A stretch of 64,000 nucleotides of DNA, taken from positions 157,539 through 221,538 of the forward strand of contig CACHSZ010000002.1 of NCBI GenBank assembly GCA_902582755.1, in the 5' to 3' direction. This stretch comes from an uncultured Alphaproteobacteria bacterium (GTDB lineage Bacteria > Pseudomonadota > Alphaproteobacteria > HIMB59 > GCA-002718135). Below, piece by piece: positions 12 to 11,896 of this stretch. The notes under the pieces were generated by a model. That model worked only from the letters and a program-made list of their open reading frames with translations, made no database searches and was not told where the DNA came from. Every line of letters begins with the position of its first letter. Position 1 is the first letter of the stretch. The translations under genes were made by a program, and so were the position numbers.

Positions 12-749
12 ATGAATAAAATTAATTTAGAAAATAGAGTTGCAATTGTAACGGGTGGAGCACAAGGCTTTGGCTTAGCTATTACTAAAAGATTTATAGA
101 GTCAGGTGCAAAAGTATTAATATGGGATAAAGATACAGAATATTTAAATAAAGTTGATCTAAAAAATACTCAAAAAATTGAAGTTGATGTTTCAAATTAT
201 AAAAGTGTAGAGAATGCATTTGCTGAAAGTATTACATATGAAAACAAAATTGATATTTTAGTAAATAATGCAGGAATAGCTGGACCAAATTTTAAGACAT
301 GGGATTATCCACTTGAGGAATGGCAAAAAGTTATAGACATAGATCTAAGCGGAGTATTTTATTGCTGTAAAACTATAGTTCCTCATTTTATCAAAAATAA
401 TTATGGACGTATCGTTAATATTTCGTCGATAGCTGGTAAGGAAGGTAATCCTAACGCAATGCCTTATAGTGCAGCAAAAGCAGGAGTTATTGCACTTACT
501 AAATCTTTAGGAAAAGAATTAGCTGAAAATAATATTTCAGTTAATTGTGTTACCCCTGCACCTGCTAAAACACGTATTTTTGATCAAATTACACAAGAAC
601 ATATTGATTATATGTTATCAAAAATTCCGAGAAATAGATTTGTGTTAGTAGAAGAATTAGCTTCTTTAGTTGCTTGGATGTCCTCTGAAGAGAATTCTTA
701 TACCACAGGATCAACTTTTGATTTGAGTGGTGGTAGAGCTACTTATTAA
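12..749 (+). CDS. SDR oxidoreductase, similar to 2-keto-3-deoxy sugar-acid dehydrogenases (LRA5-like)
   Basis: TGGAQGFG, NNAG and YSAAK motifs; the GKEGNPNA..YSAAKAG..TKSLGKELA segment resembles LRA5-type enzymes; sugar-acid context. Confidence 0.7.
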   Translation: MNKINLENRVAIVTGGAQGFGLAITKRFIESGAKVLIWDKDTEYLNKVDLKNTQKIEVDVSNYKSVENAFAESITYENKIDILVNNAGIAGPNFKTWDYPLEEWQKVIDIDLSGVFYCCKTIVPHFIKNNYGRIVNISSIAGKEGNPNAMPYSAAKAGVIALTKSLGKELAENNISVNCVTPAPAKTRIFDQITQEHIDYMLSKIPRNRFVLVEELASLVAWMSSEENSYTTGSTFDLSGGRATY

Positions 750-1723
750 TTTTTTCTTCTTTGTATTAGGGCGTAGACTGTTACGGCTACTGTAATCATG
801 AGTCCGTTAATAAATTTTACATAAAAACCAGATAGGCCTAAAGCAACTATTCCTGATTCTAATGATCCAATAATTAATACTCCAATAAAAGTTCCAAAAA
901 TAGTACCTTTGCCACCAAAGACTGAAGTGCCACCAACAAAGACAGCTGCTAGTGTTGTTAACATCAAACCTTCACCTTGTGTAGGCCAGAAATATAACAT
1001 TTCATACATTGTAAAAATTCCTGCTAATGCAGAGAAAAATCCTAGTTGAACAAAAGCAATAATTTTTACATTATCAACGTTAATTCCCATCATTTGGGCG
1101 CTTGCTTTGTTATCACCTACAAAGTGGATATGATTTCCAAATTTATGGTATCGATAAACCCATTGCATCAATCCAGTTAATACAATGAACCAAATAAATT
1201 GCATTGGAATTTTTCCAAATAATTTTTCAACAAATATCATATGATGCCATGTTCCATCAGCTACATCGACGATTGCAATACCGCTACCTTGAGAAATTAC
1301 ATTAACTAATCCACGCCAAAAAAATAATGTACCTATAGTGGCAACTATTGAAGGTATACCAATTTTAGTAACAAGTAATCCATTTACTAATCCAGCAAAC
1401 ATTCCAAGTGAAGTTGCCAAAATAAATGCTATAAAAAAGTTACCATCAGTCGATGTCATTATAATTCCAAATATGAGAGAAGTAATTCCAACTATAGATG
1501 GAAATGATAAATCAATTTCACCAAGAGTAACAACAAAAGTTGCTGATATAGCAATAATGCCAAAAAAAGGCATCGATTGCATGAAAGCTCTGTAAATTGG
1601 AAATCTTGTAAATACATGAGGTGCACCCAAGAAGTAAATTAAGAAAAGCACTATGGCAATTATTGTAATACTAATTTCAAGTTTGTGTGTTTTTACAAAA
1701 TAACTATTTAATAAACTATTCAT
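746..1723 (-). CDS. Sugar ABC transporter permease (RbsC/CUT2 family)
   Basis: Hydrophobic; GEIDLS, GDN..SAQMMGIN and LAAVFVGGTS..GGKG motifs. Confidence 0.93.
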   Translation of the reverse strand: MNSLLNSYFVKTHKLEISITIIAIVLFLIYFLGAPHVFTRFPIYRAFMQSMPFFGIIAISATFVVTLGEIDLSFPSIVGITSLIFGIIMTSTDGNFFIAFILATSLGMFAGLVNGLLVTKIGIPSIVATIGTLFFWRGLVNVISQGSGIAIVDVADGTWHHMIFVEKLFGKIPMQFIWFIVLTGLMQWVYRYHKFGNHIHFVGDNKASAQMMGINVDNVKIIAFVQLGFFSALAGIFTMYEMLYFWPTQGEGLMLTTLAAVFVGGTSVFGGKGTIFGTFIGVLIIGSLESGIVALGLSGFYVKFINGLMITVAVTVYALIQRRKN

Positions 1724-2491
1724 TTAATCTTCTACCTTAATTTTTCCTGATTCATGAAGTTGGATCATTTTTTGAACAAGCTCTTCCCTTGAAATATCTT
1801 CTTTGTTAAACTCTCCTACAACTTCTCCTCTATCTAAAATGATAAACCTATCTGCAGCGCCATATACGTGTATTATATTATGATCGATAAATATTGCAGA
1901 TTTGTTTTCATTTTTTAAACCTTTTACAAAATTAAGAACTTTTTCTGTTTCCTGTATCGATAATCCCATTGTTGGTTCATCTAATACTATTAAATCAGAA
2001 TTAAAATACAATGATCTACCGAAAGCTACACCTTGTTTTTCACCACCAGATAGACCCATTACTTGAGAGTCAACTGTTATTGCCTTTGAAGTAAAACCTA
2101 TATAGTCACGTAAAATTTTTTCTGCTTCTTTTCTTTGTTTTTTTATATCTAAAAAACCAAATGAATTTGTAATTTCTCTTCCTGCAAAGATATTTCTGTA
2201 TAATTCTTGCTGATCACATAATGCTCTTTCTTGATACACTGCTTCAATCCCCATTTTTCTTGATTGAGCAACTGATTTAATTTGTACTTCTTTTTCTTTA
2301 AAAAAAACTTTTCCCGAGTTTGGACTATGAACTCCAGTTATAACTTTTATAAGTGTAGATTTACCAGCTCCGTTATCACCGATTAAAGCTACTACTTCAC
2401 CTTTGTTTATTTTGATATTCACATCTTTTAAAACTTTTACGTTTCCAAAGTTTTTGTAAATATTTTGTAATTTTAAGAGTTCTTCAGCCAT
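1724..2491 (-). CDS. Sugar ABC transporter ATP-binding protein (single domain)
   Basis: Walker A GDNGAGKST, LSGGE signature, Walker B LIVLDEPT. Confidence 0.95.
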   Translation of the reverse strand: MAEELLKLQNIYKNFGNVKVLKDVNIKINKGEVVALIGDNGAGKSTLIKVITGVHSPNSGKVFFKEKEVQIKSVAQSRKMGIEAVYQERALCDQQELYRNIFAGREITNSFGFLDIKKQRKEAEKILRDYIGFTSKAITVDSQVMGLSGGEKQGVAFGRSLYFNSDLIVLDEPTMGLSIQETEKVLNFVKGLKNENKSAIFIDHNIIHVYGAADRFIILDRGEVVGEFNKEDISREELVQKMIQLHESGKIKVED

Positions 2492-2500
2492 AAAAATAAA

Positions 2501-2523
2501 CCTGCCTTATAAAATAAGGCAGG
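2501..2523 (-). terminator. Intra-operon stem-loop or partial terminator between the SBP and ATPase genes
   Basis: Perfect 10-bp inverted repeat CCTGCCTTAT-AAA-ATAAGGCAGG; on the minus strand it is followed by TTTATTTTT and then the ATPase ATG. Confidence 0.75.
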
Positions 2524-2537
2524 CTATAATATTTAAT

Positions 2538-3518
2538 TTATCTGATTTGTACTGCTGCTAATGGAGCAACAGCATCAACGTTATCAGCTGTAACAAATGC
2601 AGCACCAGTATCCATAGCTAATCCAGCCATTCCATATTTTGTACTTAGGAATAACTGAACAATTGGCATATACCCTTGGATAAATGGTTGTTGATCAATT
2701 ACAACATCAATGTAACCAGAATTAATTCCATCAACAATAGGAGCTGATAAATCAAATCCAGCACCACATACTTCTTCAGTACCATGACCTGCAGCCTTCA
2801 TATATGTTGGTAAGCTTGCAGTTAATCCTCCATGATCAGTAATTGCTAATTTGATATCAGGATTTGCACTGTAAGTAGCCACGTACATAGGAGTTCCCTG
2901 TGATGCATCTGAGTTTACGTTATCAGGAATTTCTTGATAAACAACTTCAACACCTGCTGCTTCAACACCTGCTATTGCACCTTTAGTTCTTTCTCCTCTA
3001 TTTGGCATACTTGCGAGACCCCAGATAAATGCTTTATCTCCAGCTTGTAGACCACAAACTTCAACAGCTTTTTTACCTAGATTAAATCCAGCATCAAATA
3101 GATCTGCTCCTGCATAACCAAACCCTTCAGTTTTATATTCTGATTCAAGATCAGGAAGAGGTGTATTCATAGTAGTAATCACTATTCCCATTTCTCTTGC
3201 TTCTTGAATGATAGGTCTCATTGCAGCGTCTCCTGGAAAACCATAGATTGCAATTCCATCAGGCTGTAAAGCAACAGCTTCTTTAAATTGTTTAATCATG
3301 ATTTCTGAGTTCCACTGTGACCAGTAGTAATCTACTTCACAACCAGTGTGTTCAGCAGCAGCTACTGCACCATTATAAACGATAGTTCCAAATGGGCCAC
3401 CTTCAGGACCACCTGGGAAAAATATAAATTTCTTATCACAGCTGTAATCATTTTTTGCTACTGCTGAAGTAGATACAAAAGCAAAAAATAAAGCAATGAC
3501 AGCAAAGATTTTTTTCAT
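2538..3518 (-). CDS. Sugar ABC transporter periplasmic substrate-binding protein (RbsB-like fold)
   Basis: Start moved to MKKIFAV (GGAGG RBS upstream, signal peptide); QPDGI, GFDLS and DQQPFIQGY motifs. Confidence 0.9.
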   Translation of the reverse strand: MKKIFAVIALFFAFVSTSAVAKNDYSCDKKFIFFPGGPEGGPFGTIVYNGAVAAAEHTGCEVDYYWSQWNSEIMIKQFKEAVALQPDGIAIYGFPGDAAMRPIIQEAREMGIVITTMNTPLPDLESEYKTEGFGYAGADLFDAGFNLGKKAVEVCGLQAGDKAFIWGLASMPNRGERTKGAIAGVEAAGVEVVYQEIPDNVNSDASQGTPMYVATYSANPDIKLAITDHGGLTASLPTYMKAAGHGTEEVCGAGFDLSAPIVDGINSGYIDVVIDQQPFIQGYMPIVQLFLSTKYGMAGLAMDTGAAFVTADNVDAVAPLAAVQIR

Positions 3519-3708
3519 AATTCCTCCAAATAATTTATGCATTAATTTATAAGTAAATAAATCAATAATACAATTAAATTAAAGTATTAAAGATCTTATT
3601 ACAAATTAAAATCCCCTTTCTTTTGATAGATAAAATAGTCGCACTTATTTACTAATTTAAAGCAATTTTTATATTTATAAGATTATTAAAAAGTGCTATT
3701 TTTTGATT

Positions 3709-4695
3709 ATGGATGTTGATTTAGGTAAATGGTATCGGGCAAATATAGATAAAAAAGAATTCAAGCAGTTATGCAAGAAATCTGATTGGCAGGGTTTTAA
3801 GCATATGATTATTTATTTTTCATCTCTATTTCTTTTTGGATATCTTGCGTATGTCACTTGGGGCACTTGGTGGTCATTATTATTTTTTTTAATATACGGA
3901 AATATTTGGGGATGCAGCGATGCTATATGGCATGAAACTGGTCACAGAACTGCTTTTAAATCTAAGTTCTGGAATGATTTCTTTTATTATATTGCTAGTT
4001 TCATGGATAATTTTGAACCTATCAGATGGAGATATTCTCACTATCATCACCATACTTATACTCAATTTAATGATCCTGTAGATTTTGAAATACATGTAAA
4101 AAAACCAACTGACTTGATTGTGTTTTTCTCTCATTACATTCCATTCTCAGGTTTTATTTTCTTTAAAAATTCTCTTCAATGGGAAACTATAAAACATGCA
4201 TTTGGTGTAACTACTGATGTAATGAAAGTTTGCATTCCAAAAAATGAAAGATGGAAATGTAGATTATCTGCGTGGAGTCATCTTTCTATTTGGATGATTA
4301 GTATAGCTTCTTCAGTTTACTTTCAAAGTTGGCTTCCAGTTCTATATGTTTTATTGCCTAATTTTTATGGAAAGACCCTTGTTATGCTTATGGGTCTTAC
4401 TCAACACGCAGGACTTAGAGAAGATAAAAGAGACCATAGGTATACAACTAGAACAGTATATTTAAATCCAGTTTTAAGTTTTTTATATTGGCATATGGAA
4501 TATCATGTTGAGCACCATATGTTCCCTCAAGTTCCCTCACATAATTTACCTAAGCTGCATGCTATGATTAAAGATCAATTACCACCTGCCAGAAAAGGTC
4601 TTCTTGGGGCTTATAAAGAAATTGTTCCAGCACTCATAAAACAAGCAAAAAATCCTGACTATCAAATTCCATTATCTGTTCCAAGCAACGCTTAG
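3709..4695 (+). CDS. Fatty-acid-desaturase-family membrane di-iron oxygenase, MocD-like (paralog 1)
   Basis: His boxes HETGH, HYHHH, HVEHH; TQHAGL motif; adjacent to ferredoxin reductase and MocE-type ferredoxin. Confidence 0.85.
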   Translation: MDVDLGKWYRANIDKKEFKQLCKKSDWQGFKHMIIYFSSLFLFGYLAYVTWGTWWSLLFFLIYGNIWGCSDAIWHETGHRTAFKSKFWNDFFYYIASFMDNFEPIRWRYSHYHHHTYTQFNDPVDFEIHVKKPTDLIVFFSHYIPFSGFIFFKNSLQWETIKHAFGVTTDVMKVCIPKNERWKCRLSAWSHLSIWMISIASSVYFQSWLPVLYVLLPNFYGKTLVMLMGLTQHAGLREDKRDHRYTTRTVYLNPVLSFLYWHMEYHVEHHMFPQVPSHNLPKLHAMIKDQLPPARKGLLGAYKEIVPALIKQAKNPDYQIPLSVPSNA

Positions 4696-4700
4696 ACTGA

Positions 4701-5930
4701 GTGAAAAATAACATTATAATTTTAGGTGGTGGTCAAGCCGGAATCTATGCTGCTAGAGAGATAAGACAAAATGATTCAAAATCAAATATTAAAATTTTAG
4801 GTGAAGAAAATTTATTACCATACGAAAGACCTCCTTTATCTAAAGATTTTTTGCTAGATAAAAAAAAAGAAGAAGATCTTTATTTTCATTCTATCGACGT
4901 ACTAAAAAATGAAAATATAGAATTTGAAAATATATCAATTAATAAAGTTGATTTTGAAAATAAAAAACTTTTTGCAAAAAATGATAATGTTTACTCTTAT
5001 GATAGTCTGCTTATTTCAACAGGTTCTGAAAATAAAAAACTTACTTTAGATAACAATTTAAAGAATGATATTTATTATCTAAGAAATTTAGAAGAAGCCA
5101 AAAAAATTAAAGAAATAATTTCAAATAAAAATAAAATAACAATTATTGGTGGTGGTTTTATTGGCTTAGAAATTGCCTCATCTTTATCTCAGCTTCAAAA
5201 GAAAGTAATTGTTATTGAAATTGGTAATCAACTTATGGGAAGAATTATACCCAAACAAATTGCTGATTTAGTTCAAAACACTCATATAGAACATGGAAAT
5301 GAAATAATATTAAATAAACAGATAGAAAAAATAACTAAAAAAAATGGCATTTATGAAATTTTATTAAATGATAATTCTTTAATAGAAACAGATTTTATAA
5401 TTGCAGGTATAGGCTCAACGCCGACTGTAAAGTTATTTGAAAATACAAATTTAAAGCTTGATAATGGTATTGTAACTAATCAATTTTGTGAAACTTCTAT
5501 TAAAGATGTTTATGCAGCAGGTGACGTATCTAATTTTTATCATCCATTCTATGAAAGAAATATGCGACTCGAGTCTTATCAACATGCACAAAATCATGGA
5601 ATATGTGCTGGAAAAAATATTGCTGGAGTAAAAACAGAATACACTTCAATTCCTTGGATGTGGTCTGATCAATTTAATTTGAATCTTCAACTGACTGGTA
5701 TGTGTGATGAATATGATGAAATCATCGAAAGAGGTAATGATATTAATAATGGGGTTATTTATTTTTTCCTAAAAAATAATAAAATAAGAGGAGCATGTGG
5801 TGTTGGAATCATAGGAAAAGTAGGCCGTGACATTAGAATAACTTCTAAATTAACTGAGAAAGATACCATTGTAGATAAACAAATTCTCTCAGATCAAAAT
5901 CTAAAATTAAATAAACTTATACAAAAATAA
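4701..5930 (+). CDS. NAD(P)H:ferredoxin reductase (MocF/putidaredoxin-reductase-like)
   Basis: GGGQAG, PYERPPLSK, GGGFIGLE, AAGD and PWMWSDQF motifs. Confidence 0.92.
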   Translation: MKNNIIILGGGQAGIYAAREIRQNDSKSNIKILGEENLLPYERPPLSKDFLLDKKKEEDLYFHSIDVLKNENIEFENISINKVDFENKKLFAKNDNVYSYDSLLISTGSENKKLTLDNNLKNDIYYLRNLEEAKKIKEIISNKNKITIIGGGFIGLEIASSLSQLQKKVIVIEIGNQLMGRIIPKQIADLVQNTHIEHGNEIILNKQIEKITKKNGIYEILLNDNSLIETDFIIAGIGSTPTVKLFENTNLKLDNGIVTNQFCETSIKDVYAAGDVSNFYHPFYERNMRLESYQHAQNHGICAGKNIAGVKTEYTSIPWMWSDQFNLNLQLTGMCDEYDEIIERGNDINNGVIYFFLKNNKIRGACGVGIIGKVGRDIRITSKLTEKDTIVDKQILSDQNLKLNKLIQK

Positions 5931-5982
5931 CAATTTAATTATTTTGTATTTATTTTCATAAAATAGCTATTATATACAATCT

Positions 5983-6300
5983 ATGTCTGAAGAAAATTGG
6001 ATTGAAGTAGGGTCTACAGATAGTATTGAAGAAGAGGATCTCATCAGATTTGATCATCAAGATAAAACTTTTTGTGTGTATAAACTAACAGATGGTTTTT
6101 ATGCTACCGATGGAATTTGTACACACGAGGCGGTACATCTTGAAGATGGTTTGGTTATGGATGATGAAATTGAATGTCCAATGCACCAGGGAATTTTTAA
6201 TATTAAATCCGGAGAAGCTTTAAGCCCACCAGCGTGTGAGGATTTAAAAACATATCCAGTTAAAGTTGATAATGACAAAATTTTCATTAAGATAGATTAA
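5983..6300 (+). CDS. MocE-family Rieske [2Fe-2S] ferredoxin
   Basis: CTH and CPMH Rieske ligands; EEDLIRFDH and YATDGICTHEAVHLEDGLVM are typical of the MocE family. Confidence 0.9.
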   Translation: MSEENWIEVGSTDSIEEEDLIRFDHQDKTFCVYKLTDGFYATDGICTHEAVHLEDGLVMDDEIECPMHQGIFNIKSGEALSPPACEDLKTYPVKVDNDKIFIKID

Positions 6301-6319
6301 CTATTTTTTTGGAGATTTT

Positions 6320-7147
6320 ATGAGCAGAAAAAAACTTACAGTTTATGATTATTTGCAATGCAAAGGTAAAAGACAACTAAGTGTTATGTTTGTGCATAAT
6401 GCTGATGAGGCTGCAGCAGCTGAAGAGGCAGGCATTGACATGATTTGTACTTCTCATGATGCTCCACAATTTGGTATTTTCAATTCTTTTGATGAGCTTA
6501 AGCGAATTCGCGAAGCTGCACCAACTTGCTTTATGCAATCCGGAGGAGCAGTAAGAGTAGCTTCTGAATACGAAGCAATGAAACTATCACACAAGTATTT
6601 AGACATTGGTGCAGATGTTATCTATGGTGGTAATTGGAGTTACAAATGGATTAGAGCATTAAGAGATGAATATGTTCCAATTAATAGTCATGTTGGATTA
6701 GTTCCAGGAAATGCTACTTGGATTGGAGGATTTGTTGCACAAGGTAAAACAGCAGATAAAGCCATAAGAATATTAGAACATACTCTTGAGTTACAAGAAG
6801 CGGGTGCTATTGGAGTTGAACTCGAAGTAGTTCCACCAAAAGTTGCAGAAGTTATTACAAAAAAAGTTGATATCATGACTCTCTCAATGGGAAGTGGTTC
6901 TGGATGCGATGGGCAATATTTATTTGCAAATGATGTACTTGGATATACTCAAGGAAAAATTCCAAGACATGCTCGAATTTATAGAGATTTTAAAAAAGAA
7001 TTTTCAAAACTACAAGCTGAAAGAGTAAGTGCATTTAAAGAGTTTCACGATGATACGGTAAACAAAAAATTTAATGATCCTAAAATCACAGTTAACATTG
7101 ATGAAGGTGAATTTGAAAAATTTTTAAAACTTTCAGAAAAATTTTGA
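6320..7147 (+). CDS. Divergent PanB (ketopantoate hydroxymethyltransferase)-fold protein
   Basis: Retains HVGLVP, GGF..QGK, LEVVP and GSG..CDGQ.L..DVLG; lacks the canonical GDS, DMPF and KxEG motifs. Confidence 0.75.
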   Translation: MSRKKLTVYDYLQCKGKRQLSVMFVHNADEAAAAEEAGIDMICTSHDAPQFGIFNSFDELKRIREAAPTCFMQSGGAVRVASEYEAMKLSHKYLDIGADVIYGGNWSYKWIRALRDEYVPINSHVGLVPGNATWIGGFVAQGKTADKAIRILEHTLELQEAGAIGVELEVVPPKVAEVITKKVDIMTLSMGSGSGCDGQYLFANDVLGYTQGKIPRHARIYRDFKKEFSKLQAERVSAFKEFHDDTVNKKFNDPKITVNIDEGEFEKFLKLSEKF

Positions 7148-7150
7148 TTA

Positions 7151-8167
7151 ATGTTTGCGGGCGAAGTTGATTTAAAAACTTGGTATAAACCAAAAATAGA
7201 TAAGAAAACTTTAAAGGAACTTTCTAAGAGATCGGATATAAAAGGTTTATTAGATATATCCATATTTATTGTTGCTCTAATATTAAGTGGGTATCTATGT
7301 ATTCTAAGTTGGGGTACTTTATGGTCAATACCTGCTCTTTTGCTTTATGGAAATATTTTCTATTGTAAAATCATAAGCATTCAACATGAAACAAATCACG
7401 AAACATATTTTAAAACAAGAGCGTTAAATAAATTTTTTTATCATATAACTTCTTTACTCGGTGGTTTTGAAGCAGTTAGATGGAAGTGGAGTCATTTTCA
7501 TCACCATACTTACACTATATTTACACATGAAGAGGTGTACGATTATGAAAATAATAGCCCAAAACCAACAGAACCTGTAAGATTTCTTTTAAATTTTTTA
7601 CCTCTTGGTCCAATAATTAATATTCAAAAAATAAGACATTTTACACATTTTGAAATTATTAAACATTCATTTGGGATAATTACTCCTGTTGTAAAAGTAA
7701 CAGTGCCTGAAAAGGAGATAAAAAAAATTATTAATAGTTCAAGATTATATTTAAGTTTTTGGTTGCTCGTAATTTTATGTTCAGTTTTCTTACAATCATG
7801 GTTACCAATCATAATGATAATTCTACCCCCATTTTATGGGAATACTATATTGATGATATGCGGCATGACTCAACATGCTGGACTAGCTGATAATATTAAA
7901 GATCATAGAAAAAGTACAAGAACCGTTATTATGAATCCCTTTTTTAGTTTTTTGTATTCAAACATGGAGTATCATATTGAGCACCACATTTTCCCAAAAA
8001 TCCCATGCCATAATTTAAAAAAATTTCACAAAATAGTTAAAAATCAAATGCCTAAACCTCATAACGGAATAATTTCTGCTTATAGATCAATCATCCCAGC
8101 AATATTTAAGCAATCTAAAGATAAAAATTATTTTATTGATGTGAAGGTTCCAGATACGACAATTTAG
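7151..8167 (+). CDS. Fatty-acid-desaturase-family membrane di-iron oxygenase, MocD-like (paralog 2)
   Basis: His boxes HETNH, HFHHH, HIEHH; TQHAGL; colinear similarity to 3709..4695. Confidence 0.85.
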   Translation: MFAGEVDLKTWYKPKIDKKTLKELSKRSDIKGLLDISIFIVALILSGYLCILSWGTLWSIPALLLYGNIFYCKIISIQHETNHETYFKTRALNKFFYHITSLLGGFEAVRWKWSHFHHHTYTIFTHEEVYDYENNSPKPTEPVRFLLNFLPLGPIINIQKIRHFTHFEIIKHSFGIITPVVKVTVPEKEIKKIINSSRLYLSFWLLVILCSVFLQSWLPIIMIILPPFYGNTILMICGMTQHAGLADNIKDHRKSTRTVIMNPFFSFLYSNMEYHIEHHIFPKIPCHNLKKFHKIVKNQMPKPHNGIISAYRSIIPAIFKQSKDKNYFIDVKVPDTTI

Positions 8168-8205
8168 TCTCTTTTTTTTTATTCAAAATATACTATAAAT
8201 ACATT

Positions 8206-9210
8206 ATGACAAATCAACTGAATGATAGCGATTTTGGTACAAGAGATAAAAGGGGTCATTGGAAACCATTTGGTACAATAAGTATTAACCCACCTAAAGA
8301 TATATTTTTTAACCCGATAAAATTTTTAAAGTATTTTTTTAAATTTCCTGGAATTTTTTTCCCGTGGACCTTTGTCTTTGCAGCAATAACAGTTGCTACA
8401 TATCTTTTTTTGACTCCTTCTTTAGAGACAATGAAGACTTTTGAAATAGGATGGATATCCTATATATTTTTCAGAAACGCAGTTATTATTTTGCTTTGGA
8501 CAGGCTTCTTTCATTTAAGACTGAAGACACAAGGAACTTCATTTAAATATAACCCACGACCTCTAGAAAAAAATAACTCAACTTTTTTATTTAATGATCA
8601 GACTAAAGATAACCTATTCTATACTTTTTGCAGTGCTATTCCATTATGGACAGCTTATGAAGTAATTACATTTTGGGCATTTGCAAATCAAATAATCCCA
8701 TATGTAAGCTGGGAGGCGTATCCAATATATTGTTGTTTTATGTTCTTTCTTGTTCCATTTATAAGAGACGCACATTTTTACTTAACTCATAGATTATTAC
8801 ACTGGGCACCCCTTTATAAAATTGCACATAAAGTACACCACCGTAATACGAATACAGGTGCTTGGTCGGGTATGTCTATGCATCCAATAGAGCATATACT
8901 CTATTTTTCAGGTATCTTAGTTCATTGGATAATTCCTTCACATCCTCTTGTTGCGATGTATCATGTATTTCATGCTGGTTTAGCACCTACACCTGGACAT
9001 ACAGGATATGAAAAAATGACTTTCAAAAATGGTGTATCAATTCCAACAGGTGATTATATGCATTATATCCATCATAAATATTTTGAATGCAATTACTCAG
9101 GTGGAAACACTAGTTTCTTAGATAAATTAATGGGTACGTTCCATGATGGCTCTGAAGAAGCAACCAAAGAAGTAATGGCTCGTATCAAAGATAAAGCCCA
9201 TTACCTCTAA
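8206..9210 (+). CDS. Sterol desaturase / fatty acid hydroxylase superfamily di-iron enzyme
   Basis: HRLLH, HKVHH, HPIE and HYIHH...NY motifs; D..MGTF near the C-terminus. Confidence 0.85.
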   Translation: MTNQLNDSDFGTRDKRGHWKPFGTISINPPKDIFFNPIKFLKYFFKFPGIFFPWTFVFAAITVATYLFLTPSLETMKTFEIGWISYIFFRNAVIILLWTGFFHLRLKTQGTSFKYNPRPLEKNNSTFLFNDQTKDNLFYTFCSAIPLWTAYEVITFWAFANQIIPYVSWEAYPIYCCFMFFLVPFIRDAHFYLTHRLLHWAPLYKIAHKVHHRNTNTGAWSGMSMHPIEHILYFSGILVHWIIPSHPLVAMYHVFHAGLAPTPGHTGYEKMTFKNGVSIPTGDYMHYIHHKYFECNYSGGNTSFLDKLMGTFHDGSEEATKEVMARIKDKAHYL

Positions 9211-9254
9211 ACTTATCTTCATAAATATTAATTTTTATTATATTGATCTAAAAT

Positions 9255-10130
9255 ATGAGTAAGGTCGAATTATATAAAGATGTAAAAAATAGTTTAGGAG
9301 AAGGTATTACTTGGTCTTCAATTGACCAAAGTTTACTTTGGGTAGATATTAAACCAAAATCAGTTTTATTCAGAATTAATTTAGATAACGAAAAATTAGA
9401 AACTTTTGATTTACCTGATTTTGTAACAGCGACGTCAATAATCTCAAAGAATGAAATTGCTTTAGTCTCAAATAATGGAGTAAATAAATTTAACTTTCAA
9501 TCTAAAAAATATGAAAGAATAATTAATGTTGAAGATGATATTTTAACAAATAGATCTAATGATGGTGCATCAGATGCTAAAGGTAGGCTTTGGTTTGGAA
9601 CGATGCAAAATAATTTTAATCAAGATGGAAGTGCAAAATCTTTAAATGCTAAATCTGGTAGTTTATATTGTCTATCTGATAATAAGGTAAATATTGTTGA
9701 AACAAATCTTGGTATACCTAATACATTTGTTTGGAGTCCAGATAACACGAAATTTTATTTTGCCGATACAACTAAGGGATCATTACTAGAATACAATTTT
9801 AGCCTAGATGAAGGTAGTTTGTCAGACAAAAAAAACTTCTTCGATTTTGATAGAGGTGCTCCAGATGGATCAACTATTGATAGTGATGGTTTTATTTGGA
9901 ATTGTCGTTGGGGTGGGTCATGTGTAGTGAGAATAGATCCTAAAGGAAGAATAGATAAAATTTACGAACTACCTGTTGAAAATGTAACAAATTGTGTATT
10001 TGGAGGAAGTGATCTTAAAACTTTATTTATTACAAGTGCAACAAATTCAGGTAAAAATCAATATGATGGTAGTTTATTTGCATTAAATGTTAATGTACCT
10101 GGCCTTGAAGATAATAAATTTAAAATTTGA
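9255..10130 (+). CDS. SMP-30/gluconolactonase family sugar lactonase
   Basis: LGEG..W, NRSNDG..D..GRLWFGTM, PN..WSPD and PDGSTIDSDG motifs. Confidence 0.9.
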   Translation: MSKVELYKDVKNSLGEGITWSSIDQSLLWVDIKPKSVLFRINLDNEKLETFDLPDFVTATSIISKNEIALVSNNGVNKFNFQSKKYERIINVEDDILTNRSNDGASDAKGRLWFGTMQNNFNQDGSAKSLNAKSGSLYCLSDNKVNIVETNLGIPNTFVWSPDNTKFYFADTTKGSLLEYNFSLDEGSLSDKKNFFDFDRGAPDGSTIDSDGFIWNCRWGGSCVVRIDPKGRIDKIYELPVENVTNCVFGGSDLKTLFITSATNSGKNQYDGSLFALNVNVPGLEDNKFKI

Positions 10131-10162
10131 TTTTTTACTTTAATTAGCTAAAACTTTCACAC

Positions 10163-11896
10163 ATGAATAAAAAAAATAAATTTAGATCTTCTAATTGGTA
10201 TAATTCTAAATCACATCGAAGAGATACATTTATTCACAGAGGCTGGATGAGAAATCAAGGTCATCCAAATCATTTGTTTGATGGCCGTCCTGTAATTGGA
10301 ATTTGTAATACTTGGTCAGAATTAACTCCTTGTAATGGTCATTTCAGAGAGATAGCAGAGTCTGTTAAAAAAGGTGTTTATGAAGCCGGCGGTTTTCCTC
10401 TTGAATTTCCTGTTTTTTCAGCAAGCGAATCCAATTTAAGACCCACAGCTATGTTGTTTAGAAATTTAGCAAGTATGGATGTTGAAGAGGCAATAAGGGG
10501 TAATCCTATTGACGGAGTAGTACTATTAATGGGGTGTGACAAAACAACACCTTCGTTAATGATGGGAGCTGCAAGTGTAGATCTTCCTACTATAGGTGTT
10601 TCAGGTGGACCAATGCTCAATGGACACCATCAAGGTGAAACAATAGGTTCTGGCACTGGAGTTTGGAAACTTGATGCAGATTTAAATGCTGGCGTAATTA
10701 CAGAAGAAGATTTTATTAATGCAGAAATTTCAATGAGTAGATCGAAAGGTAATTGCATGACAATGGGGACTGCATCAACAATGGGATCAATGGTGGAAGC
10801 ATTAGGGATGTCACTACCTGGAAATGCTGCAATACCTGCAGTTGATTCAAGAAGATATGCTTTAGCACATATGTCTGGGAAAAGAATTGTTGAAATGGTT
10901 AAGGAAGACATAACTATGTCAAAAATTGTTACAAAAAAATCATTTGAAAATGCAATAAAGGTCAATGGAGCAATAGGGGGATCTACAAATGCGGTTATCC
11001 ATTTGGCTGCAATTGCTGGTCGAATGGAAATAGATTTAGATTTAGAGGACTGGAATAAATGTGGAGATGGTATTCCAACACTAGTAAACTTACAACCTTC
11101 TGGAAAATATTTAATGGAGGATTTTTATTATGCAGGTGGTGTTCCCGTAGTTATAAAAAGATTAATGGAAAAAAAACTATTAGAAGAAAATGAAATGACT
11201 GTTAATGGAAAAACTATATCTGAAAATAATATAAATGCTAAATGTTGGAACAATGATGTTATAAAAGAATTTGAAAATCCATTAACAAAAAATGGAGGAA
11301 TTAAAATTCTTAGAGGTAATATTGCTCCAAATGGTGCAATTATCAAACCATCAGCTGCATCACCAGAATTAATGAAACATACTGGAAAAGCCGTAGTCTT
11401 TGAAAGTGTTGAAGAGTTTCATGAAAAGATTGATGATCCTAATTTAGAAGTTGATGAAAATTCAATATTAGTTTTAAAAAACTGTGGGCCAAAAGGTTAT
11501 CCTGGTATGGCAGAAGTTGGCAATATGAGACTTCCACAAAAAGTTCTAAAGAAAGGTGTGAGAGATATGATTAGAATATCTGACGCCAGAATGAGTGGAA
11601 CAGCATATGGCACAGTTATACTTCATACAGCTCCAGAAGCCGCAGTTAAAGGTCCTTTAGCAGCAGTACAAAATGGAGATGAAATAGAAGTAGATGTTAC
11701 TAATGGTACAATGAATTTAAAAGTTGATGACGAAACAATAAAAAACCGTCTAGAAAATTATTCACCTGTCGTTCCAGAAATCACAGGTGGTTACCAAAAA
11801 ATGTATATAGAACATGTCATGCAAGCTGACAAAGGTGCAGACTTAGATTTTCTTATTGGTAAAAGAGGTGCTGAAGTAAAAAGGCATAGTCATTAA
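10163..11896 (+). CDS. IlvD/Edd-family sugar-acid dehydratase (L-arabinonate dehydratase-like)
   Basis: GICNTWSELTPCN, RPTAMLFRNL, GCDKTTP, GGSTN, SDARMSGT motifs; C-terminal RHSH. Confidence 0.88.
   Translation: MNKKNKFRSSNWYNSKSHRRDTFIHRGWMRNQGHPNHLFDGRPVIGICNTWSELTPCNGHFREIAESVKKGVYEAGGFPLEFPVFSASESNLRPTAMLFRNLASMDVEEAIRGNPIDGVVLLMGCDKTTPSLMMGAASVDLPTIGVSGGPMLNGHHQGETIGSGTGVWKLDADLNAGVITEEDFINAEISMSRSKGNCMTMGTASTMGSMVEALGMSLPGNAAIPAVDSRRYALAHMSGKRIVEMVKEDITMSKIVTKKSFENAIKVNGAIGGSTNAVIHLAAIAGRMEIDLDLEDWNKCGDGIPTLVNLQPSGKYLMEDFYYAGGVPVVIKRLMEKKLLEENEMTVNGKTISENNINAKCWNNDVIKEFENPLTKNGGIKILRGNIAPNGAIIKPSAASPELMKHTGKAVVFESVEEFHEKIDDPNLEVDENSILVLKNCGPKGYPGMAEVGNMRLPQKVLKKGVRDMIRISDARMSGTAYGTVILHTAPEAAVKGPLAAVQNGDEIEVDVTNGTMNLKVDDETIKNRLENYSPVVPEITGGYQKMYIEHVMQADKGADLDFLIGKRGAEVKRHSH

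Follow-up and report, generated by a model that had tools for sequence, protein, structure and literature searches.

The open reading frame (ORF) at 6320..7147 in a 64,000-nucleotide stretch of DNA from an uncultured alphaproteobacterium of the HIMB59 lineage (contig CACHSZ010000002.1, positions 157,539 to 221,538; the whole stretch is called the window below) encodes a protein that resembles PanB, the ketopantoate hydroxymethyltransferase (KPHMT) of pantothenate synthesis. It is one of eight same-strand genes that follow each other with short gaps from 3703 to 11896, with an ATP-binding cassette (ABC) importer and a short-chain dehydrogenase (SDR) upstream. In window coordinates, with strand and supporting evidence, the gene row reads:

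12..749, plus strand: SDR, probably a sugar 1-dehydrogenase (adh_short; NCBIfam matches of the glucose 1-dehydrogenase type)
746..3542, minus strand: sugar-type ABC importer with permease, ATPase and periplasmic binding protein (BPD_transp_2, ABC_tran, Peripla_BP_4)
3703..4695, plus strand: membrane di-iron oxygenase 1, FA_desaturase family, MocD-like (PF00487, 2.8e-32)
4701..5930, plus strand: flavin adenine dinucleotide (FAD)-dependent ferredoxin reductase, MocF-like (Pyr_redox_2 and Reductase_C)
5983..6300, plus strand: Rieske-type [2Fe-2S] ferredoxin, MocE-like (PF00355)
6320..7147, plus strand: PanB-fold look-alike of 275 amino acids without the Mg2+/keto-acid site, proposed to be a folate-dependent one-carbon (C1) acceptor (ORF, Pfam, AlphaFold2 (AF2) model and alignments)
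7151..8167, plus strand: membrane di-iron oxygenase 2, FA_desaturase family (PF00487, 7.2e-34)
8206..9210, plus strand: membrane oxygenase of the FA_hydroxylase (sterol desaturase) family (PF04116, 1.3e-19)
9255..10130, plus strand: lactonase of the SMP-30/gluconolactonase (SGL) type (PF08450, 4.2e-72)
10163..11896, plus strand: IlvD/Edd-family sugar-acid dehydratase, L-arabinonate dehydratase-like (Pfam, NF004784)

Oxygenase 1 is likely the cognate partner of the PanB-like protein, and homologues of this oxygenase precede the PanB-like gene in rhizobial and SAR11 loci. The gene for oxygenase 2 starts at 7151, leaving the 3-bp gap that the initial annotation had described. Metatranscriptome contigs that are at least 95% alike (4 runs from 4 studies) span the PanB-like gene and both of its boundaries. 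The boundary with the Rieske gene is bridged, for example, by X4 record 21 (6010-6936), and that with oxygenase 2 by X1 record 5 (6908-7178) and X2 record 12 (7100-7503). These contigs demonstrate presence in RNA libraries, which is compatible with operon expression and is no proof of transcription or of a single transcript. A predicted complex of the PanB-like protein with oxygenase 1 scored 0.00 in a run without controls, a value that weighs neither way.

The initial annotation had assigned this protein a PanB fold with a rewired active site, and both parts of that assignment are borne out. The AF2 model is of high quality (predicted local distance difference test 94.7; predicted template modeling score 0.87), and its best PDB matches in a Foldseek search are PanB structures (template modeling (TM) score ~0.68-0.70), followed by phosphoenolpyruvate (PEP) mutase and methylisocitrate lyase. 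In Pfam, PF02548 alone matches at E values up to 1, with 129.6 bits against a gathering cut-off of 28.7 and with only profile positions 91-256 aligned; neither a GcvT nor a Fae/Gfa fold appears in either search. The NCBIfam models for PanB, TIGR00222 and NF001452, are missed (102.6 versus 207.55 and 117.6 versus 272 bits), and Pelagibacter-type and Rhizobium etli relatives likewise remain under these cut-offs.

Residues were numbered from a HMMER alignment to Escherichia coli PanB (1m3u), except for the GDS region, which was taken from a MAFFT alignment. From the 1M3U literature we take D45, D84, K112 and E114 of the E. coli enzyme to serve Mg2+ and keto-acid binding. In the window protein, D45 is replaced by H46, with CTSHD under the canonical LVGDS; D84 is replaced by G75; and K112 and E114 fall within a two-residue deletion next to Y102. 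The HxGLxP, LEVVP and CDGQ..L..D..G segments are kept, together with the equivalents of H136 (H124) and of the catalytic E181 (E169). Excerpts of two reports describe KPHMT as metal dependent (PMC13488298, PMC7770189).

As judged from the alignments, the active-site changes are a property of the family and not a quirk of one gene. A HMMER search of 1.84 billion representatives returned 67 proteins at E<=1e-30, and many full-length relatives share 31-49% identity. From a 107-row alignment we compared 66 core subfamily rows with 31 canonical PanB rows. All 31 canonical rows keep G-D-S, D84, K112 and E114. None of the 66 subfamily rows has the canonical residues. Their GDS position varies, G replaces D84 in 74% and Y replaces K112 in 95%, E114 is missing from 100%, and ~20-25 residues after strand 2 are also deleted. 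Residues that are invariant in both clades include K15, H124, G126, P129, G136-G137, G142, G162 and E169, as well as G191, G193, D197, L201, D205 and P215; the equivalents of E. coli D214 and CDGQ are invariant too. Y102, E167, F202 and H217 are invariant only in the subfamily (canonical PanBs carry K, V, V and F there), as are W134, R64 and R216.

The subfamily also stands apart in a maximum likelihood tree (quick search, LG+G4, midpoint root), the comparison with bona fide PanB for which the initial annotation had called. A branch with a Shimodaira-Hasegawa-like approximate likelihood ratio test (SH-aLRT) value of 99 divides its 72 rows from the 31 canonical PanBs and 4 other proteins. PF02548 scores are bimodal, with look-alikes at 95-131 bits and canonical PanBs at 290-384 bits. 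Of 60 other Pseudomonadota genomes that were sampled, 3 encode look-alikes. Among 151 sampled Pelagibacterales genomes, 143 match the subfamily profile (E<=1e-10); because 11 of these do so only at the canonical level (~1e-34 to 1e-37), we count the look-alike in 132, often in multiple copies. Literature searches, with supplements outside their reach, yielded no characterization of the family or of an oxygenase/look-alike module. The sole mention found is a failed complementation in R. etli, described in excerpts of PMC3082293.

A few family members have unusual architectures. P0272 and P0273 (687 and 648 amino acids) consist of a look-alike, an acidic linker and a mutarotase-like C-terminal domain of ~350 amino acids, whose nearest Atlas clusters have the automatic name galactose mutarotase or include DUF4432 (12% of members). 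These two fusions are counted as one event because the proteins are close kin. P0123 (542 amino acids) contains two tandem PanB-like stretches (PF02548, 2 stretches, 311 bits).

Three PF02548 matches are present in the host genome (1.43 Mb, 84.6% complete). One of them is the second, canonical panB that the initial annotation had proposed to look for (C2:10390-11127; 259 bits, with VGDS, DMPY and KLE), so the window gene is not the only panB. The single panC match in the genome is on a separate contig (C1:255158-255973), in agreement with the earlier remark that no panC is nearby, and in none of the loci examined does a look-alike adjoin panC. In three large genomes (G001-G003: a Caldilineaceae genome, a Trueperaceae chromosome and a Chloroflexia genome), the sole PF02548 match is a look-alike and panC is missing. 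Thus all three of the checked genomes that lack panC and canonical panB retain the look-alike. The remaining PF02548 match in the host is a second look-alike of 275 amino acids (G000:C9:30827-31651; L002:1495-2322), which is 43-46% identical to the window protein. It is directly downstream of a glycosidase of glycoside hydrolase family 4 (GH4), with no oxygenase within the 3.7 kb covered, and the GH4/look-alike pair recurs in L058.

Experimental evidence comes from R. etli CFN42. According to excerpts of the report by Villasenor et al. (PMC3082293), a panB mutant of this strain is auxotrophic for pantothenate even though p42e carries a ‘second panB’, RHE_PE00443 (270 amino acids), whose product conserves 5 of 12 active-site residues and has no detected metal-binding domain. 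Constitutive expression of RHE_PE00443 failed to complement the mutant (PMC3082293). Plasmid p42e holds exactly one PF02548 match, a protein of 271 amino acids that shares 43% identity with the window protein across 270 residues, and its gene is preceded by genes annotated ‘fatty acid desaturase family protein / MocE family ferredoxin / FAD-dependent oxidoreductase’. Because it is the sole PF02548 gene on p42e and has a matching length, we infer that it is RHE_PE00443. The view of the initial annotation that this family does not serve pantothenate synthesis is therefore well supported by the separate panB and panC of the host, by the panC-less genomes that keep the family, and by the failed complementation, the experimental part of which concerns the R. 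etli relative.

Genomic neighborhoods supply the clearest clue to what the family does instead. Related loci were found with a 13-row subfamily alignment, and 79 were counted among the 80 listed of roughly 600 or more genome matches. They come from SAR11 single-amplified genomes, Mesorhizobium, Rhizobium, Ensifer, Rhodobacterales, Chloroflexota, Deinococcota and SAR324, with many close relatives among them. By tblastn with oxygenase queries, an oxygenase homolog is located within 2 kb of the look-alike in 57 of these 79 loci (FA_desaturase 48, FA_hydroxylase 5, PhyH 4). The distance is at most 150 nt in 27 of those 57 and at most 500 nt in 39 of the 79; in one further locus the only oxygenase is more than 2 kb away. 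The same approach found an oxygenase homolog at none of 31 canonical panB loci, for which 1.5 kb on each side was covered. Pfam confirms all three partner families. Elsewhere the loci vary, carrying sugar ABC transporters, LacI regulators, GFO/IDH/MocA proteins, xylose-isomerase-like barrels, a lactonase with a dehydratase, or carnitine/gamma-butyrobetaine-like genes. The oxygenase is therefore the only constant companion.

The pairing can be intimate. In L022 a PhyH gene overlaps the look-alike, and in both L022 and L084 the stop and start codons of the oxygenase/look-alike pair overlap. L075 has two FA_hydroxylase/look-alike pairs, L035 encodes a fused FA_desaturase-Rieske protein, and a Leisingera plasmid is annotated with the order LysR, look-alike, sterol desaturase family.

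Several loci merit individual description. In a Pelagibacter-type genome from a small-genome SAR11 genus (L084:6998-11398, G011), the single look-alike overlaps an FA_desaturase-family oxygenase, and the divergent neighbors are L-carnitine dehydrogenase-like and gamma-butyrobetaine/TmpA-like dioxygenase genes, all below equivalog cut-offs. This setting suggests that the pair may also serve N-methylated compounds. In L088:4468-8608 (G152), three PhyH-family dioxygenases accompany two tandem look-alikes, and the cluster adjoins BNR-repeat proteins, a major facilitator superfamily transporter, a dihydrodipicolinate synthase-family protein and an aminotransferase. On the Trueperaceae chromosome (L026:6469-7878), a protein of 469 amino acids is encoded between a PhyH dioxygenase and the look-alike. 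It gives only a faint signal for DUF455, a ferritin-like di-iron family (Pfam E 0.0018), its Atlas neighbors show 20-31% DUF455, and with it the partners may include a fourth family of iron oxygenases. A non-sugar context is seen on the Mesorhizobium plasmid NZ_AP023248.1 (100943-115698; L135), where a module of sterol-desaturase-family protein, look-alike, 2Fe-2S ferredoxin and FAD reductase has as neighbors a TauA-type ABC transporter, a hisD-like dehydrogenase and a ‘DMSP lyase family’ (dimethylsulfoniopropionate lyase) protein. Three upstream ORFs (L024:7171-8022, the N-terminal part of L034:7305-8798, and L078:6683-7891) were rejected as spurious because they are low in complexity, high in GC content and devoid of Pfam matches or homologs in other loci. 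An apparent 497-amino-acid ‘fusion’ in L034 was consequently not counted.

Some details of the window itself are also worth recording. The Rieske ferredoxin is just under the cut-off of TIGR02377 MocE_fam_FeS (136.0 versus 136.15 bits), and the dehydratase scores 916.6 bits with NF004784 (cut-off 539) and 837.9 bits with NF009559 (cut-off 882). Among named NCBIfam models, both FA_desaturase-family proteins (3703-4695 and 7151-8167) come closest to GntB, the guanitoxin L-arginine gamma-hydroxylase, at a weak 32-44 bits (cut-off 380), a reminder that the FA_desaturase family includes hydroxylases of small polar molecules. The segment 11904-17898 encodes a GlcD-like FAD oxidase (minus strand), an Ldh_2-family dehydrogenase, a beta-lactamase-fold protein, an EamA transporter and an FGGY kinase, which may complete a sugar-acid route ending in glycolate or pyruvate.

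The oxygenase-Rieske-reductase trio of the window (3703-6300) has counterparts in rhizobia. Their loci read LacI, FA_desaturase, ‘MocE family ferredoxin’, FAD reductase, PanB-like protein, and R. etli, R. johnstonii and S. meliloti share this order with ‘MocE family’ annotations. A LacI regulator and a TIM-barrel gene lie divergent to these operons, which are of the mocDEF type. As excerpts of PMC10107442 and PMC3538637 describe it, mocDEF is the catabolic oxygenase operon for the rhizopine 3-O-methyl-scyllo-inosamine.

A second association, found in four loci, points to folate. The gene after the look-alike encodes PurU, the formyl-tetrahydrofolate (formyl-THF) deformylase, in Mesorhizobium sp. 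WSM4083 (L056) and M. yinganensis (L046), where it overlaps the look-alike stop codon (TIGR00655, 327 and 311 bits; cut-off 286). In L081 (Phyllobacterium) and L060 (Rhizobium leucaenae), a partial PurU match follows the look-alike at a contig end. PurU is a usual neighbor of THF-dependent demethylases. One such arrangement, purU-mabO-folD, is mentioned in an excerpt of PMC3891541. THF-linked oxidation of methyl groups is known from SAR11, which the available part of PMC3160333 notes to be without a formaldehyde-activating enzyme. The host genome is rich in THF-linked C1 metabolism, encoding FolD and ten GcvT-family matches.

We propose, with a probability of about one half, that the PanB-like protein is a neofunctionalized PanB-fold enzyme that handles the C1 unit for O2-dependent demethylating oxygenases, with THF as the acceptor. 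The fold, the loss of the site, the separation of the clade, the conserved neighborhoods and the independence from pantothenate synthesis are shown by the data above. The binding of THF, formaldehyde as the substrate, and the identity of the methylated compounds are what we infer. PanB carries out two tasks. It opens 5,10-methylene-THF to the N5-iminium, which calls for folate binding and acid/base catalysis, and it forms the Mg2+-stabilized ketoisovalerate enolate that attacks this iminium. A protein that performs only the folate half-reaction is the most economical reading, because the residues for the enolate task are lost, the Glu/His pair and the loops unrelated to the metal are kept, the partners are oxygenases, and PurU is adjacent in four loci.

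Under this proposal, electrons from NAD(P)H would reach the membrane di-iron oxygenases by way of the FAD reductase and the MocE-type Rieske ferredoxin. An oxygenase would hydroxylate an imported O-methyl sugar or cyclitol at its methyl carbon (at other loci, probably N-methyl compounds), and the resulting hemiacetal or carbinolamine would give off formaldehyde. The PanB-like protein would bind THF as PanB does, and Glu169 (E181) and His124 (H136) would condense the C1 unit with it to 5,10-methylene-THF, the reverse of the ring-opening half-reaction of PanB. The Mg2+/Lys half of the site, which forms the keto-acid enolate, would be needless and hence gone. Methylene-THF could then feed THF-linked C1 oxidation through FolD and then PurU or Fhs. 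The C1 unit might even be handed over directly from the oxygenase, so that no free formaldehyde arises. The wider claim that this is a dedicated THF-dependent formaldehyde (hydroxymethyl) activating enzyme, a standard partner of O- and N-demethylases from at least three oxygenase families that brings methyl carbon into THF-linked energy metabolism in SAR11, is more tentative, and we put it somewhat short of an even chance. Of the two C1 roles suggested in the initial annotation, trapping of oxygenase-released formaldehyde on THF is the one that the three oxygenase families, the MocDEF-type operons and the four PurU loci favor. Reverse PanB chemistry on a branched keto-sugar finds no support, because the enolate-forming Mg2+/Lys site that it would need is lost.

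A number of observations weigh against the proposal. The parts of the literature available to us contain no definition of the THF site of PanB itself. Formaldehyde and THF also condense spontaneously, as an assay description in PMC13488298 indicates. Streamlined SAR11 genomes carry several paralogs (up to 8 profile matches per genome), each beside its own oxygenase, and a generic formaldehyde trap should need a single copy. By alignment, the invariance of Y102, E167, F202, H217 and W134 hints at a substrate or metal site built anew, for which simple C1 capture has no obvious need, and the two fusions to a mutarotase-like, sugar-binding domain would suit a sugar substrate equally well. In 21 of the 79 loci the tblastn queries found no oxygenase neighbor, and some of these look-alikes are among housekeeping genes. 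The locus counts overstate the number of independent observations because many of the 79 are close kin, especially those from Mesorhizobium and SAR11. PurU is beside the look-alike in only 4 of the 79, all from Hyphomicrobiales, and neither loci L004-L092 nor the first 20 kb of the window yielded a homolog in tblastn with the FolD and eight GcvT-family proteins of the host as queries.

Part of this evidence fits a different kind of enzyme, one that transforms the organic product of the oxygenase and handles no C1 unit. Such a sugar or cyclitol enzyme would enolize, isomerize, epimerize, eliminate from or cleave its substrate, using E169/H124 as a general base together with the new invariant residues Y102, E167, H217 and W134. 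It would account for the polar and aromatic invariants that line the former active site and for the several paralogs per genome, each with its own oxygenase and transporter, as expected of substrate-specific enzymes. The mutarotase-like fusions are a lead in the same direction, and PanB is known to catalyze enolization (an excerpt of PMC7770189). However, the sole constant neighbor is an oxygenase drawn from three unrelated families, and the pathway genes vary from locus to locus (sugar ABC with lactonase/dehydratase, inositol type, TauA-type transporter, carnitine/gamma-butyrobetaine-like), which makes one type of organic substrate unlikely. In addition, the electrophilic catalyst (Mg2+, Lys) required for carbonyl chemistry in this superfamily is gone, and the adjacent PurU in four loci indicates folate. 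We regard a substrate-transforming role as unlikely, at roughly the level of a serious minority view, but as the strongest of the alternatives.

The strict adjacency to oxygenases, down to the overlapping codons in L022 and L084, together with the loss of the canonical catalytic metal site, would also be expected of a partner that does no chemistry of its own or that serves the cofactors of the oxygenase. It could be a scaffold, a pseudoenzyme, a regulator of the oxygenase, or a device for delivering or recycling Fe(II) or reduced pterin. In favor of the cofactor-serving version, alkylglycerol monooxygenase, a member of the FA_hydroxylase family, uses tetrahydropterin. Against this stands the invariance, across phyla, of the putative catalytic Glu and His and of about ten other pocket residues, which favors catalysis. 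Moreover, a supply of electrons or pterin is no need that all partners share, because 2-oxoglutarate dioxygenases of the PhyH type need no external reductant, and the operon already has its own ferredoxin and reductase. A non-catalytic or cofactor-serving role is accordingly improbable in our view. Least credible by far is a divergent but genuine KPHMT, as annotated: the above-threshold PF02548 score and the name ‘3-methyl-2-oxobutanoate hydroxymethyltransferase’ in the sources are set against the absence of every Mg2+/keto-acid ligand, the scores under the NCBIfam equivalog cut-offs, the separate clade, the canonical panB and panC elsewhere in the genome, the persistence of the family in panC-less genomes, and the failed complementation by the R. 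etli relative (PMC3082293).

These distinctions have practical consequences. Look-alikes are mislabeled as ‘3-methyl-2-oxobutanoate hydroxymethyltransferase’, and some records add Gene Ontology terms for pantothenate biosynthesis. This inflates predictions of vitamin-B5 prototrophy, since panC-less genomes still appear to ‘have panB’. If the folate-dependent role is true, the family would be the THF-linked counterpart of Fae and Gfa and would fill a gap, and it would explain how demethylases of the oxygenase type escape formaldehyde poisoning. It would also provide a handle on the use of methylated sugars and related compounds by the most abundant heterotrophs of the ocean. Because the family occurs in culturable and genetically tractable hosts such as R. 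etli and Sinorhizobium meliloti, the hypothesis is directly testable.

Three known systems invite comparison. With PanB (EC 2.1.2.11; 1M3U, 3VAV, 3EZ4, 1OY0, 1O66/1O68), the look-alike shares the (beta/alpha)8 fold at a TM score of ~0.7, and its C-terminal two thirds are recognizably homologous at 23-27% identity. The His136/Glu181 equivalents and the GGF(K/R)xxGK and CDGQ..D..G segments are retained, and thus the presumed folate-facing half of the PanB site appears to be kept. It differs in the loss of Asp45, Asp84, Lys112, Glu114 and the stretch after strand 2, and in the gain of a seven-residue insertion, a PRHAK motif (His for Phe) and the invariant Y102, E167 and F202. In R. etli, the look-alike is neither needed for pantothenate synthesis nor able to replace the enzyme that is (PMC3082293, in the part available).

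With MocDEF of rhizopine catabolism in Rhizobium and Sinorhizobium, the window has in common an FA_desaturase-family oxygenase, a MocE-like Rieske ferredoxin and an FAD reductase, and the rhizobial relatives of this trio adjoin LacI, TIM-barrel and sugar ABC genes. The window version differs in having three membrane oxygenases and in being joined to a lactonase and an aldonate dehydratase, not to inositol genes. The available portions of the published descriptions name no PanB-like fourth gene and contain no biochemical reconstitution (PMC10107442, PMC3538637).

The GcvT-fold domains of sarcosine and dimethylglycine oxidases, Tdm and DmdA, the tetrahydromethanopterin-linked Fae and the glutathione-linked Gfa share with the look-alike its proposed job, which is to move demethylation carbon onto a C1 carrier with no escape of free formaldehyde, and PurU is a typical neighbor in these systems. 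To our knowledge, no dedicated THF-dependent formaldehyde-activating enzyme has been described. The look-alike is unrelated to these proteins in fold and ancestry, being a PanB barrel of the PEP-mutase/isocitrate-lyase superfamily, and it stands as a polypeptide of its own beside the O2-dependent iron oxygenases with which it is paired. It is a PanB-fold protein with a rewired site, and if the folate-dependent role is confirmed, the activity itself would be new.

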